A DNA stretch of 64,000 nucleotides from a virus (taxonomy: Duplodnaviria; Caudoviricetes), in IMG/VR virus record IMGVR_UViG_3300035685_000002, positions 39,061 through 103,060 of that record; one strand, given 5' to 3'. The notes beneath the pieces are model-generated. The model was given only the letters and a program-made list of their open reading frames with translations, ran no database searches and was not told the origin of the DNA. The translations under genes were made by a program, and so were the position numbers. Positions 3,001 to 55,339 of this stretch are shown piece after piece (position 1 is the stretch's first letter; each line of letters starts with the position of its first letter).

Positions 3001-5524
3001 TTATCAAGCTTTCGGAGCATACGACACTGCCTCAATGCTCATGTCGAAGACTAGTAGCTTTTTGTCCTCTAGATTCGAGGGAGTTACTTCGTCAGCTCAA
3101 AAGCTTTGGAGACAGGTCGTTGTAAACTATCAAGCTTTCGGAGTATACGACACTGGTTCGATGCTTATGTCAAGGGCTAACAGCTTTCTGTCTTCTAGTT
3201 TTGATTCCCTAAAGGCTTTTGTAGCACAAGCCTGGACTAAAGTTGCCTCATTTTATGAAGGAACACCATTAGCCGCTACTGCATCTAAGGTTATTGGAGC
3301 GGCTAACGAATTTATTTCAACTACATTTAGCAACCTCAAGTCATTCGCAAGCATGGCTTGGCAAGAGCTGGTAGCAGGATATGAGAAGAGTGGATTAGCT
3401 GCTAGTGTTTCTAAGATTATTGGAGCAGCCAATGAATTTATTGCCAATACGTTTGGACCAGTCAAAGAATTTGCTACCAATGCTTGGCAGGCAATTGTCA
3501 AAGCATATCAAGATAGTGGATTGGCGGCTGGGGTTTCTAAAATTATCGGTGCGGCAAATGAATTTATATCTTCTACATTCAACTCTGTTAAGCAATTCGC
3601 GATAAAGGCTTGGCAAGCAATAGTTACGACTTATCAAGAGGGCGGCGTAGCCGCAGTTGGTTCCAGGGTTATCGCTGCCGCTAATGAATTTATATCAACT
3701 AGCTTTGCCAAAGTAAAAGAATTTGCTGTTCAGGCATGGACGAGCATCGTTGCCACATACCAGAAAGGGGGGCTTGCCGCTGTTTGGGCGAAATTGATGG
3801 GTGGTGCCAATGAATTCATATCAAGTAGCTTTGCCAAGGTCAAGGCATTTGCAGTTCAAGCCTGGGCTGGCGTAGTAGCTTCGTATGAGGGCAGCGCCCT
3901 AGCGGCAATGCTATCCAATACCATTTCTAGAGCCAACGAGTTTATTTCAACCAGTTTCGCCAAGGTGAAAGAATTTGCGCTAAAAGCCTGGGCGACGATG
4001 GTCGCTACCTACCAGGAAGGGGGGATAGCTGCGGTTGGCTCTAAAATTATTGCGGTTGCCAACGAATTCATTTCAAGTAGCTTCGCCAAGGTAAAAGCAT
4101 TTGCCATTCAAGCTTGGGCAAGTATTGTTGCAACGTATCAACAAGGTGGATTTGCTGCTATAGGTTCAAAAATTATTGCGGCTGCCAATACGCTTATATC
4201 AACCAGTTTCGCTGGGCTAAAGAACTTTGCCTCTCAGGCTTGGCAATCAATTGTGTTGGGGTATCAACAAGGGAATATTGCAGCGATCGCGTCCAGCGCT
4301 ATTGCCAGAGCCAACCAGCTGTTATCTGGTTCATTTGGTTCACTAAAGGACTTTGCTGGTAATGCTTGGGGTGAAATTGTTGGAGGATACAAACAGGGGC
4401 TTATAGCTACTCAAGCTCAAATTGCGCAAAAAGCAGCAGCAGCAGCTGCTGCTGCGACACAGGCAGCTGTCGAAGTTCCTGCGAATGCTGCGATCGCTGC
4501 CAGTGAGCAAGGTGTAGCTGTTGCAGCTTCTGTTGCTGGTACGGCACAAGTTCAATCGTCGGTTGCAGGAAGTGCGGCGGCGACTACAGGGGCTGGTGTA
4601 GTTGCGAGTGCGAATACGGTAATGTCTAGTTCATTTGCCCGGTTAGGCATGGCAGCCTCTAAAGCCTGGGCGTTTATCGTTGGACCACTGCTACCTATAA
4701 TAGTGATTGTTGGCGCACTCGCCTTAGTTATTGGTAGCGTCTATTTTGCATTCAAGTCCAACTTCCTGGGTTTTGGTTCGCTACTTAAAACGTTCTGGAA
4801 GTCACTGCAACAGCTAGGGAAGAGTTTGGCTACGTTATTCTCTCCCTTGATGCCGCTGTTTAAGCTGGTTGGTGGATTGATACTCCTAGTAATAGTAGGA
4901 CCAATAATGCTGGTGGTTGGAGCCTTAACTCTAGCAGTTATGGCAATTAATGCACTGGTTCAGGGAGTGATTGCGATCGCCTCAACTGCATTTAATTTCC
5001 TCTGGGGACTAATTCCACAACCGTTGAGATGGTTGATTGAGCAAGCATCTAAGGGAATTGAATTTGCAGTAAATGCCTTGTTTGGTGGAAACAAGGGTGG
5101 AGACCAAGCAACTGAAGACCTTCCGCATTTTGCAACAGGTGGTCCTGTTTCCGCAGGAAGTCCAGGTGGTTCTGTTGCTGCGATTTTGCATGATAACGAG
5201 TTTGTAATGAACCCGGATGCGACTCGTGAGAATTATGGACTATTGCAGCTCCTTAACAGTGGGGTGCCAGCTGAAGATGCGATTCGGATGATACCCACTA
5301 CACCTCCAGCTCCTGTAGCCCTACCTATGGGAACTGGAGGTGGTGGTACTGTTAGCACAACTCAGCCCCCTAATATTGAGTTAAGTATTACCTTTAGTGG
5401 GGATATTGTTTTAGGTGGGTCAAGCAGTCAGGAGAGTGCTAGGGAGTTTATGGATATGATTGGTCCTGAGATTGAGCAGTTAGTAGTAGAGGCAATGCGA
5501 CAGCGAGGTGAATTTTCTAGATAA
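2..5524 (+). CDS. Phage tail tape measure protein (5'-truncated by window)
   Basis: Frame is open from position 2. Ala/Gly-rich amphipathic helices with periodic W/F, 12 x 42-aa repeats, and a typical C-terminal FATGG...LHDNEFV motif. Confidence 0.9.
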   Translation, partial: AAGVTTATTAVWAFVSPWVIAVSTALAPFLPVILGVIGAVALFGVIWRTNLFGLGSAIKPLLDFSIGLLKIVGAAIYVVSGLFLVITAVKLAGMVLRNVFGLIGSTIHQTQKTVAGSWFGDFLSKLAAPFKFAWNALNTLADGILGIGRGGQIVNEILEDIAKHPVRFLQTSFMAINWLVKSLIKPLLLLTTGAWGLAKAFGGGVVGAISSISGLLGGVINALEALWTSVASFLQSAFQNTLNYFGQIDWVAVSTGATDALTGIGMAILQPFVWVYNQIDAIAKKSTEVFDALGAKLSKIPVVGLAFQKGLTPPPTTEAAQSPLVAEAAIPSLIQQTPTGAAISSPVVDAQSPLAAASGQVQQAWTGFGSWFGSFMQNLPEDAQIAGQGLISALNCWPTVVIPQSWERAAGEIGGSLTGLTQEAVTRGEEIAQGMQQAIEPSLLGVFQKVKLLRQGFDMKGVQMILGEESLGDQLSKLQGATIDFRRSFVNALLHLDFSAAGESLATYGRAWLSTGSGILGTVKSMTSSMIAFGIYSLLGLNPLLLVMGGIALAGLAIAFNFLGIRTILGGLIGVIKGLLGVFVSTIKFAVNLGRAIGTIWQGIQLMDFDMIKVGAVNAFSAITGYVKDLWQSLSQGLGGVLQVLRGLFEGLGQVGGGVLSLFGMKGTWVSDVFGRIFSFVGNLASAFISMVTRPQQAWTRFKELLDSILEKVQQVLGKAKDVATNAMEGVKSSPLGQSVRIVKKVVTGESSSIGDAVDQVRFEERLKGKEPGLNLGEQVTAAKINAKKRFDNAVAFTGGLFRRRSKDEDLVAPVNSSSQNNTPQVPKLGTAGNPIKIDQNFPIIPPVKIDTPDIDPLNDTDIPQKSTSRIQKLSAASDSTSNAVSSLGTVVGAFSPQLAAPLYVATSLLSAVNNLGDVATSSKEALAGFADAFPGLGKSMSEMGQRARDIYSGFTSWVGGASIFEKASGLMAGANQFLSSKFEGVTSSAQKLWRQVVVNYQAFGAYDTASMLMSKTSSFLSSRFEGVTSSAQKLWRQVVVNYQAFGVYDTGSMLMSRANSFLSSSFDSLKAFVAQAWTKVASFYEGTPLAATASKVIGAANEFISTTFSNLKSFASMAWQELVAGYEKSGLAASVSKIIGAANEFIANTFGPVKEFATNAWQAIVKAYQDSGLAAGVSKIIGAANEFISSTFNSVKQFAIKAWQAIVTTYQEGGVAAVGSRVIAAANEFISTSFAKVKEFAVQAWTSIVATYQKGGLAAVWAKLMGGANEFISSSFAKVKAFAVQAWAGVVASYEGSALAAMLSNTISRANEFISTSFAKVKEFALKAWATMVATYQEGGIAAVGSKIIAVANEFISSSFAKVKAFAIQAWASIVATYQQGGFAAIGSKIIAAANTLISTSFAGLKNFASQAWQSIVLGYQQGNIAAIASSAIARANQLLSGSFGSLKDFAGNAWGEIVGGYKQGLIATQAQIAQKAAAAAAAATQAAVEVPANAAIAASEQGVAVAASVAGTAQVQSSVAGSAAATTGAGVVASANTVMSSSFARLGMAASKAWAFIVGPLLPIIVIVGALALVIGSVYFAFKSNFLGFGSLLKTFWKSLQQLGKSLATLFSPLMPLFKLVGGLILLVIVGPIMLVVGALTLAVMAINALVQGVIAIASTAFNFLWGLIPQPLRWLIEQASKGIEFAVNALFGGNKGGDQATEDLPHFATGGPVSAGSPGGSVAAILHDNEFVMNPDATRENYGLLQLLNSGVPAEDAIRMIPTTPPAPVALPMGTGGGGTVSTTQPPNIELSITFSGDIVLGGSSSQESAREFMDMIGPEIEQLVVEAMRQRGEFSR
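2924..4400 (+). repeat. About 12 tandem 126-bp (42-aa) repeats in the tape measure gene
   Basis: Units of the form ANEFISxxFxxxKxFAxxAWxxxVxxY. The first two units (starting 2933 and 3059) are near-identical at DNA level. Confidence 0.85.
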
Positions 5525-5536
5525 TAAAGGTTTATT

Positions 5537-7161: not shown

Positions 7162-7682
7162 TGGAATTGAAATACGAGTCAGATTGGGGCAAGCTGTTTG
7201 ATAGGCTCAACAAGCTTGAGGCGAATGTAAAGTCAGTCGGCGAGAGTATCTGTCAAGATGCTGTCCAGAACATGGATGATCTGTGTCGCGATCACCTCGC
7301 AAGCCAAGGACGGGGAGGAGCTACCCCACCATTGACGGCAATGACAAAGCATATTTACTCGATTGATGGTGAACCGGATGGTAGCGGTATCCGGAACCAC
7401 ATGGAGGTCAAAACCGGTTGGGCGGGTAATGAGTATACAGCTGTGCTGGGAATCCTGGACGGAAAGCCTACTATTGTTGCCAAGGTGCAAAATGACGGAT
7501 GCATTATTGATATCACTCCGGCTATGCGAGGGTACTTCGCAGCTCGCTACGGGATTTTCTTTAAGGCGGACAAGAAGTACCTGGTGGTTCCAGGGCGCAG
7601 GTTTTGGGACGAATCTTGGGAAAAGACTAGGAGTGAGACAATAAAGGAACTGTCTAGTTTTTTCCGTAACGTCCTAGGGTAA
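7161..7682 (+). CDS. Phage virion morphogenesis / tail completion protein (HK97 gp10 / Mu gpG-like)
   Basis: PPL..T...G, QN.GC.I..T..MR and C-terminal VP.RRF pattern; TGATG coupling to the previous gene. Confidence 0.55.
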   Translation: MELKYESDWGKLFDRLNKLEANVKSVGESICQDAVQNMDDLCRDHLASQGRGGATPPLTAMTKHIYSIDGEPDGSGIRNHMEVKTGWAGNEYTAVLGILDGKPTIVAKVQNDGCIIDITPAMRGYFAARYGIFFKADKKYLVVPGRRFWDESWEKTRSETIKELSSFFRNVLG

Positions 7683-7694
7683 TAAAGGTTTATT

Positions 7695-9636: not shown

Positions 9637-9711
9637 CAAAATGCAGAAGCCTTGATGTTTATTACACAGATTTGTGATAAAATAATGTAGTAAACATCAA
9701 ACATCAAAAGT

Positions 9712-10369: not shown

Positions 10370-10389
10370 CTTTTTAATAAAGGTTTATT

Positions 10390-10599
10390 ATGCGGCTAAT
10401 TGATGTTTACAAACCAGGCACTAAGGTTGTTAATAAATTTGACGGGAGAGTTGTTTTTGTTAGTTCGTGCGATCGCTGCCAATACGGTTATTGGACAGTC
10501 ATCAAAGGCAAAGATTTCGCGGTTGCCAGTACCCTGGATTCTCTCATTTTTGCAGGTTGGAAAGCTCAAAGAATTAATTCTCTAGCTGCTAGAATTTAG
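10390..10599 (+). CDS. Small hypothetical protein
   Basis: ATG overlaps the last base of the 16-bp palindrome. Confidence 0.5.
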   Translation: MRLIDVYKPGTKVVNKFDGRVVFVSSCDRCQYGYWTVIKGKDFAVASTLDSLIFAGWKAQRINSLAARI

Positions 10600-10696
10600 G
10601 GGTAATTCCCAGCGCGATTGAGGAGATGTTGAGACCATCCCCGCGATCGCATTACCACTGGGGCTATTCACCAGAAACGACCTGGCAAACAGCATG
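10587..10696 (+). promoter_or_regulatory. Extended -10 (TGCTAGAAT) plus conserved structured leader, copy 1
   Basis: Homologous to 54681-54787 (minus strand); two predicted hairpins. Confidence 0.7.
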
Positions 10697-11539
10697 ACCA
10701 ATATAGCAGCCCATGAGGGTATGTGCGAGATTATCCGTCAAACTGAAGACGGCATCGAGTTCTATACCGTTACATCTACAGGTAAATCAGGAATGAGCCA
10801 ATCAGGATTATCCGTCTTGGCAGGTGTAACCAGGCAAGCAATCATCAAACTCGAAGAAACCCTCGTAACCAAAGCCCCTTCAAAATCGTTAGAACCCTTT
10901 GTAGGTAAAGACTTGACCCTTGTAACCGAAAACGAAGCTTTTGTAGAAGGCAAGCCTGTCGGCAATCTGAGGATCTACAGTTCTGGTTTTTGTAGCAGTG
11001 TGATTCAGCACTATGCCTTTAAGGGTAATGAGACTGCTCAGTATAGCATGGGCAAATTTTCCGATATGGGAATCGAAAGGTGGATTCAGCAAATAACTGG
11101 ATGGAGTAAGTCGGAACCCCAAGGACAGCCTTACTGGTATCGTCGCCTTATTATGTATCGTGAGAAGACGAGAATTCCGGTCGGCTACTTCTCTGTGTTT
11201 GAGGAAATCATCTCGCTAATCGGAGACCTAGAAGCTCAAGGATACGTTATTCCAGCCGGATGCGTCCCTGATGCCTCTGTCGGTAAATGCTGGGCAACCT
11301 ATCTCCGGAAGGTAGAGAAGATTAATCCCAAAGATGTCGCTCTGAAGTACAAGCACTACTACCCGGACTGGGCGCACTCCGTCAAGGCATTTATCTATCC
11401 CCTGGAATTCTTACCTAAGTTCCGAATCTGGATGGAGGAAACTTACAAGCCGATTAAAATGGTTGCATATTTCCAGAAGAAAGATCCAACGGCGATGCCA
11501 TCAGTTTGCAAGTTGCTTGGTCTGCCGGAAGGAAAATAA
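10694..11539 (+). CDS. BstA-like protein (KilA-N-like N-terminus plus BstA-type C-terminus)
   Basis: PxGYFSVFxE, PDxSVGxxW, YxHxYP and YPxxxLxxFRxWxxxxY motifs recalled from the BstA family. Confidence 0.6.
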   Translation: MTNIAAHEGMCEIIRQTEDGIEFYTVTSTGKSGMSQSGLSVLAGVTRQAIIKLEETLVTKAPSKSLEPFVGKDLTLVTENEAFVEGKPVGNLRIYSSGFCSSVIQHYAFKGNETAQYSMGKFSDMGIERWIQQITGWSKSEPQGQPYWYRRLIMYREKTRIPVGYFSVFEEIISLIGDLEAQGYVIPAGCVPDASVGKCWATYLRKVEKINPKDVALKYKHYYPDWAHSVKAFIYPLEFLPKFRIWMEETYKPIKMVAYFQKKDPTAMPSVCKLLGLPEGK

Positions 11540-11563: not shown

Positions 11564-11598
11564 ACAACAAAAAGCGACCTATCAGGTCGCTTTTTGTT
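11564..11598. terminator. Bidirectional intrinsic terminator
   Basis: ACAAAAAGCGACCT-ATC-AGGTCGCTTTTTGT between convergent genes. Confidence 0.8.
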
Positions 11599-12617: not shown

Positions 12618-12693
12618 TGATTTACTTAATTTGTTTACTACATTATTTTATCACAAAATGATATAATATTGGTGTAAACTAATCGAGAAAGAT

Positions 12694-53822: not shown

Positions 53823-54683
53823 TTATCCAGCCTTGGGTTGTTCTACTTTTCTATTCACCATTGGAATAACGTTCCTAGTCAAGGATTCTTTGACCGCATC
53901 TAGTGGTTTGTAGTCATGGTTGATGATTAGACGAGCTGCCAATTCTTCTATTTGAGAGATCCACCGAAGCTCGTCAGCCGTCAATGCATCTCTCAGTTTA
54001 GAACGATCCTTAACCCCCAGGTCGCTGCACAGTTTGTTAGATTTTCGTCCAAACAATCCGAGGTTTACAGCTTCAGAGCAATTGACGTACATCCATTGGA
54101 TAGCTCCTGCGGAAAGCTTGTCTCTGTGAATTGCGACATACTGTTTAACGGCGTCAGTTAAATCCAGGCGAACCTGTTTACCCTCCTGTCGTTTTTCTAG
54201 CCAATCCTGCCTGGATTCTTCGTCGAACTTCATACGAAAGCCATCAGAAAATAGCTGCTGGAGAGATAGTCCTGCTAGTAGGTCAAGCAGATCGTCGGCT
54301 TCACTACTTCCCAGTCTTTTGCAGATTTTAAGGAAAGGGACAATGCTTTCTACTGAAAGTAGATCGACTTTCCTTGCGTCTTTCCCCTCCGTCTCGACTC
54401 GAACTCCTGGATGGAGTTCGATGCACTCTGCATAAGGCTTTGAGGAATTTACGTGCCTAAAACTGGATGGACTAAGAGCTTCCTGTGATTCAATTATTCT
54501 CTTGTATCGTTTAGTGCACTGGTTCCGGTCATAATTCGGGTAAGCCAGAAGAACGGCTTGTGTCTTGCTGACACCGAACTTATTTGTTGGTGTCCACAAG
54601 TTTTCAGGCAATAGATAGCCCTCGATTGACGTACTCCCGAACGGAATTTCGGCGCGAGTCGCTTTAGTGTTAGTATTCGTCAT
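53823..54683 (-). CDS. Antirepressor-like DNA-binding protein (P63C-type N-terminus, KilA-C/DinD-like C-terminus)
   Basis: AEIPFG...IEGYLL; R..GK..R..LTD...LFG....LRDAL..EL. Confidence 0.55.
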   Translation of the reverse strand: MTNTNTKATRAEIPFGSTSIEGYLLPENLWTPTNKFGVSKTQAVLLAYPNYDRNQCTKRYKRIIESQEALSPSSFRHVNSSKPYAECIELHPGVRVETEGKDARKVDLLSVESIVPFLKICKRLGSSEADDLLDLLAGLSLQQLFSDGFRMKFDEESRQDWLEKRQEGKQVRLDLTDAVKQYVAIHRDKLSAGAIQWMYVNCSEAVNLGLFGRKSNKLCSDLGVKDRSKLRDALTADELRWISQIEELAARLIINHDYKPLDAVKESLTRNVIPMVNRKVEQPKAG

Positions 54684-54787
54684 GTTATTCGCCACTTATT
54701 CTGGCGGATAGCCCCAGTGGTAATGCGATCGCGGGTATGCTGCCAACATCCCCGATCCGCGCTGGGTTTTGCCCTTTAATTCTAGCA
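54681..54787 (-). promoter_or_regulatory. Extended -10 plus conserved structured leader, copy 2
   Basis: Homologous to 10587-10696. Confidence 0.7.
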
Positions 54788-54903
54788 ATTGGGCTGTCTT
54801 GATTTTGTTCAATAAACAACAATTAATAGAGCAGAATAATAAAGGTTTATTAGAAAAGCGATCGCCCACATTTCAGTAAGCGATCGCTTTTTCAAATCTA
54901 TAT

Positions 54904-55257: not shown

Positions 55258-55339
55258 GTTGCAGTTCTATGGTTGATTAATTACATTATAAGCTATTATG
55301 TGATAAAATGTATGTGTAAACCAAAAAACAAGGCTTCTT

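Follow-up and report, generated by a model that had tools for sequence, protein, structure and literature searches.

Predicted antisense RNA elements in front of BstA-like and antirepressor-type genes of cyanobacterial phages

Two copies of a conserved element in a large phage genome

The window, i.e., the whole 64,000-nt stretch of DNA analysed here, comprises bases 39061-103060 of a 103,060-bp IMG/VR virus record (IMGVR_UViG_3300035685_000002, herein G000) that is 88% complete. The genes of this phage include those for a tape-measure protein, a terminase, a tail fibre, a DnaE-like polymerase, and a RecD-like helicase, its DNA contains HIP1 sites (GCGATCGC), and DNA of the same phage occurs in biocrust and soil metagenomes, with no RNA run among the matches. 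Together, these features point to a large tailed phage whose host is a filamentous cyanobacterium.

Two stretches of the window, at 10587-10696 on the plus strand (copy A) and at 54787-54681 on the minus strand (copy B), carry a conserved element of about 105 nt, in both cases at the position that an earlier note on this DNA had given. The parts of the two copies and the genes behind them are as follows:

10587-10595, plus strand: sense extended -10 promoter of copy A (TGCTAGAAT), read as a motif, with a transcription start inferred near 10602
10596-10693, plus strand: 5' untranslated leader of the BstA-like mRNA and predicted target of the antisense RNA, with a sense fold of 20 conserved pairs
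10694-11539, plus strand: BstA-family gene (gene A, 281 aa, P0001), assigned through PADLOC, PHROG, and tblastn
10700-10708, minus strand: candidate antisense extended -10 (TGCTATATT) in codons 3-5 of gene A, its hexamer ending 3 nt before the complement of the ATG
10663-10693, minus strand: predicted 5' hairpin of the copy A antisense RNA, with 13 pairs here and 11 in the consensus
10608-10662, minus strand: predicted long three-part, terminator-like hairpin of the same RNA, complementary to the outer and inner stems of the earlier note
10590-10607, minus strand: predicted 3' tail of the same RNA, weakly U-rich in this copy
11566-11598, both strands: two-way terminator hairpin at the end of the single-gene BstA cassette, a 15-pair stem followed by a T run
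54779-54787, minus strand: sense extended -10 promoter of copy B (TGCTAGAAT), read as a motif
54684-54778, minus strand: 5' untranslated leader of the gene B mRNA
53823-54683, minus strand: gene B (286 aa, P0064), known by the matches of its C-terminal domain
54668-54676, plus strand: candidate antisense extended -10 (TGTTAGTAT) in codons 3-5 of gene B
54684-54712, plus strand: predicted 5' hairpin of the copy B antisense RNA, with 11 pairs and the 7-nt loop CUUAUUC
54713-54766, plus strand: predicted long terminator-like hairpin of the same RNA
54767-54784, plus strand: predicted U-tract tail of the same RNA (UUUUGCCCUUUAAUU...), ending over the sense -10 and transcription start

Both copies begin with TGCTAGAAT (10587-10595, plus; 54787-54779, minus), from which the alignable block runs to the ATG (10694; 54683), a distance of about 98 nt in A and 95 nt in B, and then continues for about 10 nt into the ORFs. 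The two leaders are identical at a fraction of 0.78 of their positions and share an identical 28-nt block that is present nowhere else in the window, with 0 such blocks expected by chance, and the whole 103-kb record contains exactly two copies. The proteins encoded behind them are unrelated (best BLASTP E 5.9), in agreement with the earlier statement that no gene duplication is involved. Comparison with Rfam, which the earlier note had asked for, yields no family that matches either strand: the scan of the whole window against Rfam 15 gave nothing at gathering thresholds, the sar and C4 families included, region A gave nothing at E up to 10, and region B gave only noise, consisting of snoRNA and miRNA models at E about 1 or above.

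Genes behind the element

The membership of gene A in the BstA family is solid as judged from its protein sequence. It matches the PADLOC model of BstA over residues 16-264 (E 6.8e-38) and PHROG 6287 (E 1.6e-34), and tblastn aligns 85% of the protein with BstA of phage BTP1 at 27% identity (E 2e-14). Among its BstA homologues, P0002 (77%) is the closest. Gene B, in turn, has a C-terminal domain that is common to cyanophage KilA-N proteins, including those of Nodularia phages, and that matches the PADLOC defence candidate PDC-S22, while its N-terminal part is without an assigned family. The gene B family is modular, since this C-terminal domain (PDC-S22; "transcriptional regulator" phrog_2657) is found on varied N-terminal domains, KilA-N among them; in the related phage G001, the two gene B paralogues differ in their N-terminal halves.

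Further copies in other phages

In an alignment of the protein B homologues, three ORFs carry the string ...GWGYPPE.VANNM..., which is the leader read in frame, and the alignment thereby pointed to the related 107-kb phage G001. Here two copies, D and E, each lie directly before the start codon of a B-family gene, and the phage has the same standard promoter as the window phage. The sense motif that precedes copies B, D, and E belongs, as in copy A, to the class TG[CT]TA[GA]AAT, which is unlike the standard promoters of the phage. Regarding annotation, the database ORFs of the gene B homologues P0065, P0067, and P0078 are extended upstream through the leader (e.g., ...YGWGYPPEQVANNM...); these N-terminal extensions are probably artefacts, the frame happening to be open there.

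A search of further phages with a covariance model of copies A, B, D, and E returned two much more diverged copies in G004, a complete phage genome of 147.7 kb, with E about 1e-8, a rough value, as are all E-values from covariance models built within this analysis. A first loose search had missed these two copies, and cmsearch found them. Copy F1 precedes a KilA-N gene with a B-type C-terminal domain and copy F2 a gene with a BstA-type N-terminal domain, and hence G004 and the window phage present the same pairing of gene types behind their two copies. In the cultured Nodularia phage vB_NpeS-2AV2, the sense model also gave a weak match that lies exactly in front of the KilA-N gene; with a covariance model of the antisense strand, this copy rises to 38.4 bits (E 4e-10, equally rough). 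The antisense model gives, in addition, weak matches at the exact expected position before the antirepressor gene of Aphanizomenon phage CL131 and before a homologue in G002; on reading, the CL131 sequence has the same layout. In all, five to six further copies were found, and the association with one gene class is exclusive, in that every one of them precedes a gene of the BstA, KilA-N, or antirepressor type; the copies represent about four phage lineages and are not independent of one another.

Other searches returned little. Exact matching of a 28-mer and a 15-mer of the leader to viral contigs gave chance matches only, a 19-mer had no exact match in genome contigs nor a 20-mer in metagenome contigs, a gapped leader pattern retrieved only G001 from viral contigs, and blastn against GenBank phages gave no match. 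The locus search guided by the BstA protein returned a single distant locus from viral contigs (L003, IMGVR_UViG_3300021061_000050), none from metagenome contigs, and only one irrelevant Flavobacteriaceae match from genome contigs; the DNA polymerase and protein B as single queries retrieved no related loci. The distant BstA-like gene of L003 (L003:2900-3030) has an unrelated leader, yet the antisense motif TGATAATTT is located four nt before the complement of its ATG. Judging from this locus, the face-to-face promoter layout may extend more widely than the family that the models recognize. Furthermore, a 459-nt contig from a soil/biocrust metagenome carries a third, B-like variant (aligned at 10625-10663) in which the stems are kept (CCCAGCGCG...; CGCCA/TGGCG) but the 6-nt loop differs, and so does the gene that follows, as seen with 30 nt per flank.

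Conservation of the element

Genes B and D are orthologous, encode proteins that are 67% identical, and show identities of 0.71, 0.81, and 0.43 at the three codon positions. The leaders of this pair are identical at 0.79, whereas the 120 nt upstream of the -10 reach 0.55, the same value as shuffled sequence. Thus, the conservation of the element equals that of codon positions one and two, in contrast to the randomised third positions and upstream DNA. In the paralogous pair D/E, protein identity is 53% and leader identity is 0.91. Conservation of the leader amid randomised surroundings indicates purifying selection combined with partial homogenisation within a genome.

Structure and strand

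On the sense strand, the stems that had been described earlier, i.e., an outer CCCAG/CTGGG stem, an inner stem, and a second hairpin, are all present in the minimum-energy folds. The further claim that the changes between copies preserve pairing does not follow from A and B alone, for which none of the 20 pairs has changed on both sides and the differences are one-sided or shift the register, but it does hold once the distant copies from other phages are added, which bring true compensatory changes. Among the four close copies (A, B, D, and E), the 20 consensus pairs show essentially no variation, and the conserved blocks are mutually complementary beyond column-shuffled controls (z -5.1). With the G004 copies included, 10 of the 20 pairs show two-sided changes, a number matched by none of 500 shuffles, and the diverged copies, when folded independently by minimum energy on the sense strand, adopt the same architecture.

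The covariation is nevertheless specific to the opposite strand. A MAFFT alignment that was not fitted to any model, read antisense, contains 30 pairs, 14 of them with two-sided changes; 96.6% of its cells are paired, none of 500 shuffles reaches it in any of five measures, and slid controls yield 1-6 pairs. The short second hairpin of the sense strand corresponds to an 11-bp helix on the antisense strand, and this 5' helix is paired in 66/66 cells across 6 sequences, five of its pairs having changed on both sides. Read antisense, the conserved pairs comprise 137 Watson-Crick, 28 G·U, and 1 A·C cells, that is to say, a wobble pair on the antisense strand is a mismatch on the sense strand, and the reverse is almost never seen. 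Since G·U wobble pairs can be selected for in RNA but not in double-stranded DNA, the covariation through G·U pairs indicates that selection acts on an RNA rather than on duplex DNA.

Folding energies agree with this strand assignment. The minimum free energies range from -32 to -44 kcal/mol for the antisense strand and from -21 to -31 kcal/mol for the sense strand, the antisense fold being the more stable by about 5-22 kcal/mol in 7/7 copies, and the alifold energies are -40.5 (antisense) and -21.0 (sense). Moreover, the antisense z-scores lie between -3.4 and -6.0 in all seven copies, with 0/200 shuffles as good for each, whereas those of the sense strand lie between -1.0 and -3.1. Four of the six loops contain a turn of the YUNR type, a motif linked with rapid antisense pairing.

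Promoter and terminator motifs on the antisense strand

An extended -10 motif (TG..A...T) on the antisense strand, ending 3-4 nt short of the ATG complement, is found in 8/11 genes of this class versus 7/131 other phage ORFs; in copy D, the TAGAAT is present and the TG is missing at the exact position. The unrelated target proteins share N-termini rich in Asn, Ile, and Thr (MTNI, MTNT, MDNSN, MINTI, MSNLT). The location of the antisense -10 within codons 3-5 would explain this shared composition, as well as the conservation that reaches about 10 nt into unrelated ORFs. At the other end, a long antisense hairpin is found in 7/7 copies and is directly followed by a U-run in B, D, E, F2, and CL131, while the tail is a weaker mixture of U and A in copies A, F1, and Nodularia; the A-run that stands before the first stem of the sense strand is the complement of the U-run. 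The antisense RNA delimited by these motifs would be about 95-105 nt long, from the start codon to the sense transcription start, and in copy A the 5' arm of its 5' hairpin is the complement of the translation initiation region of the mRNA. In regard to a partner in trans, the search of G000 and G001 gave no complementarity of at least 11 nt beyond chance or HIP1 sites.

Proposed mechanism and alternative explanations

In the reading that we prefer, with a probability of roughly 0.6, a cis-antisense RNA of ~95-105 nt, transcribed convergently with the gene's own promoter, represses translation of the gene. Each copy would be a small regulatory cassette with two convergent promoters separated by about 110 bp. 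From the sense promoter (TGCTAGAAT), a BstA-like or KilA-N/antirepressor-type gene would be transcribed into an mRNA with a leader of ~92 nt, and the antisense promoter TGnTAnnnT within codons 3-5 would give an untranslated RNA that is fully complementary to this leader. The latter would start at the complement of the start codon and fold into a 5' hairpin of 11-13 bp and then into the long three-part hairpin, whose U-tract would end it at the sense transcription start. Pairing with the mRNA would probably begin as a loop-loop contact between the 5' hairpin and the complementary small hairpin of the mRNA, and the full duplex would hide the ribosome loading site up to the start codon, thereby blocking translation, and would be exposed to double-strand RNases; promoter interference from the convergent transcription may contribute as well. 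The predicted outcome is a tight, switch-like control of DNA-binding proteins that would be harmful at the wrong time. Furthermore, given the long blocks of identity between the two copies of a genome, each RNA may target the mRNA of the other gene as well.

The earlier note had read the element as a cis-regulatory leader or an aba-like element. As a conserved, structured, and non-coding element outside Rfam, tied to BstA- and antirepressor-type genes, it stands, and the pointer to the antisense-RNA control of antirepressors was apt, but the strand has to be reversed, since the selected structure is that opposite to the mRNA (28 G·U vs. 1 A·C cells), is the more stable one, and has promoter and terminator motifs of its own. 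In a structured 5' leader acting in cis, the sense fold would control the stability or translation of the mRNA, either as a protective 5' stem-loop or as an operator of the encoded protein. The good extended -10 located 8-13 nt before the first stem in all copies agrees with such a leader, as does the common architecture of the independently folded diverged copies, and the 20 conserved sense pairs, 10 of them compensatory, mean that the sense fold may matter too. However, the antisense strand alone has eight to ten extra pairs, the A·C mismatches of the sense strand fall exactly at antisense G·U pairs, the sense z-scores are weak, the sense fold leaves the start region open, and both the opposite-strand -10 in codons 3-5 and the A-run before the first stem are left without explanation. 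The G·U bias, the stability, and the promoter and terminator motifs are thus better accounted for by a cis-antisense RNA gene, and we regard the cis-acting leader as unlikely. Nor is the antisense structure readily reduced to an insulating terminator, whose hairpin and U-tract would only shield the sense promoter from stray antisense transcription: the long hairpin and the U-run do end at the region of the sense -10 and transcription start, and the phage has many hairpin terminators, but the covarying 11-bp 5' hairpin between the start codon and the terminator, the -10 motif 7 nt before this hairpin, and the restriction to one gene class would all be unexplained, which makes this explanation quite improbable.

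An aba-like function, in which the gene's 5'-terminal DNA would counteract the cognate BstA protein, the phage would be spared self-abortion, and a second copy would raise the dose, draws on the solid BstA membership of gene A and on the aba of BTP1, a 63-bp sequence that spans the bstA start codon and of which several copies are needed in trans (PMC8585504). Of the well-supported copies, however, only two precede BstA-related genes (A, and F2 with its BstA-N-like gene), while B, D, E, F1, and that of Nodularia precede KilA-N or B-family genes, and G001 has two copies and no detectable BstA in a record that is 63% complete. Conserved terminal direct repeats like CCCGCC are not seen, the loops vary in length from 5 to 7 nt, and covariation through wobble pairs is a mark of selection on RNA; the aba-like alternative raised earlier is consequently set aside as very improbable. 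Translation of the leader, as an upstream ORF encoding a leader peptide (MLRPSPRSHYHWGY... in A, MLAAYPRSHYHWGYPPE in B) or as an N-terminal extension of the protein, might be suspected from the ATG that is kept in all four close copies, from the small ORF of copy A, which ends in an ATGA overlapping the main start codon, and from the three homologues in which gene callers ran through the leader. This candidate was rejected because the frame differs between copies: 1-nt indels shift it, giving HWGYPPE in A and B, AGAIR in the small ORF of D and E, and LGL in the main frame of A. In addition, all six A/B differences in the small ORF are nonsynonymous, and GGAG abuts the ATG with no spacer, so the chance of a translated leader is minimal. 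An equally negligible chance is left to a put-like RNA that would let RNA polymerase pass terminators, as in phage HK022. The presence of the element twice in a genome, in each case with a pair of stem-loops close behind a promoter, recalls such an RNA, but the candidate was rejected on the gene layout: behind copy A there is only one gene before a strong two-way terminator, and the genes beyond are convergent, so that read-through would be useless. The strand evidence, too, favours an antisense RNA.

Relation to known regulatory systems

Small antisense RNAs that gate antirepressors, such as P22 sar and P1 c4, are classics of enterobacterial phage biology. To our knowledge, such an antisense RNA has so far been reported neither for cyanophages nor for any defence gene of the BstA family. 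Judging from its sequence and layout, the element most likely represents an RNA family outside Rfam and a phage cis-antisense regulator of antirepressor-type genes, and, if the antisense reading is true, it would be the first such case both for cyanophages and for a BstA-family gene. It would suggest how a phage restrains a potentially self-harming abortive-infection protein, and it would account both for the ORFs wrongly extended through the leader and for the shared Asn/Ile/Thr-rich N-termini. Moreover, its occurrence in cultured phages of bloom-forming Nodularia, and probably of Aphanizomenon, makes the proposal directly testable.

In phage P22, pairing of sar RNA with the mRNA of ant prevents translation of the antirepressor (PMC12197685, PMC13397905, PMC2629481). 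Like sar, which belongs to the immI region (arc, sar, ant), the predicted RNA is small, encoded in cis, and antisense towards the promoter of an antirepressor-type gene; it likewise complements the translation initiation region, is rich in hairpins, and would block translation by pairing, and the start-codon complement is near the 5' end in the sar sequence as well (PMC13397905). In contrast to sar, which has 68-69 nt, the predicted cyanophage RNA has about 95-105 nt and covers the whole leader, its promoter lies within codons 3-5 of the target, and two paralogous units are present per genome. The targets are of the KilA-N, BstA, and Bro-N types, the hosts are filamentous cyanobacteria, no Arc/Mnt-type partners are seen, and the element and sar have no similarity in sequence or model (Rfam cmscan of both strands).

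The c4 RNA of P1 and P7 (c4-icd-ant) is also a structured small RNA that blocks a ribosome site upstream of an antirepressor in a loop-dependent manner (PMC12197685). However, c4 is cut from the leader of the same strand and pairs with short sites, unlike a fully complementary transcript of the opposite strand, and the cyanophage element has no match to the Rfam C4 family. The type I toxin-antitoxin system SymR/SymE resembles the predicted unit in that an antisense RNA lies opposite the 5' UTR and start of a potentially harmful gene (PMC5415839), but the cyanophage targets are two-domain DNA-binding proteins of ~250-290 aa instead of small toxins, and their harm is putative. As regards the aba of prophage BTP1, it is similarly located at the 5' end of bstA, spans the start codon, and is phage-specific; unlike the cyanophage element, it acts as DNA, with 63 bp and terminal CCCGCC direct repeats that are essential (PMC8585504), whereas the cyanophage element shows covariation of the antisense-RNA type and mostly precedes non-BstA genes.

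A more speculative and rather unlikely proposal is that the paired antisense RNAs constitute an RNA-based self-identity switch for BstA-type abortive infection, i.e., a functional counterpart of aba. The phage's own RNAs would silence its BstA-like and KilA-N-type effectors, the fast-evolving loops might provide a specificity private to each lineage, and the identical blocks might allow cross-control of both genes as one small regulon. For the proposed antisense RNA in general, we infer its synthesis and its repressive effect from the covariation, the motifs, and the gene association described above.

Promoters, palindromes, and lifestyle of the source phage

The BstA gene as a marker of a temperate phage is so far unsupported here, since the record of the window phage, which is 88% complete, yielded neither a tyrosine integrase nor a serine recombinase. 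The related phage G001 is classed as a provirus by IMG/VR and carries two small resolvase-type genes near one end (G001:96100-102228).

The genome of the window phage contains about 40 copies of a stereotyped promoter, TGTGATAAAATA-N5-GTAAAC. Within 2 mismatches, this pattern occurs 23 times in the window phage and 20 times in G001, compared with 0 for a reversed control pattern; examples are located at 9673-9695, 12645-12667, and 55299-55321, often paired back-to-back. Genes A and B are exceptions to this standard promoter, with a different -10 and a long leader, and each of them forms a single-gene cassette that has its own terminator or the promoter of the next gene directly behind it.

In addition, a 16-bp palindrome-like motif, TAATAAAGGTTTATTA or TAATAAACCTTTATTA, occurs in about 60 copies in the 103-kb window phage, with a variant, TTAAACCTTTAAT, in the related phage G001. 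As a probe for related phages, it gave single chance matches only. The motif is mostly found at gene borders, where it often provides a stop codon in both directions together with the ATG of the next gene, as at 5523-5536, 7681-7694, 10376-10389, and 54838-54851. A 69-aa ORF on the plus strand (10390-10599), without a promoter of its own or a family match, begins in a copy of this palindrome, immediately behind the terminator of the preceding gene, and its end overlaps the sense -10 of copy A.
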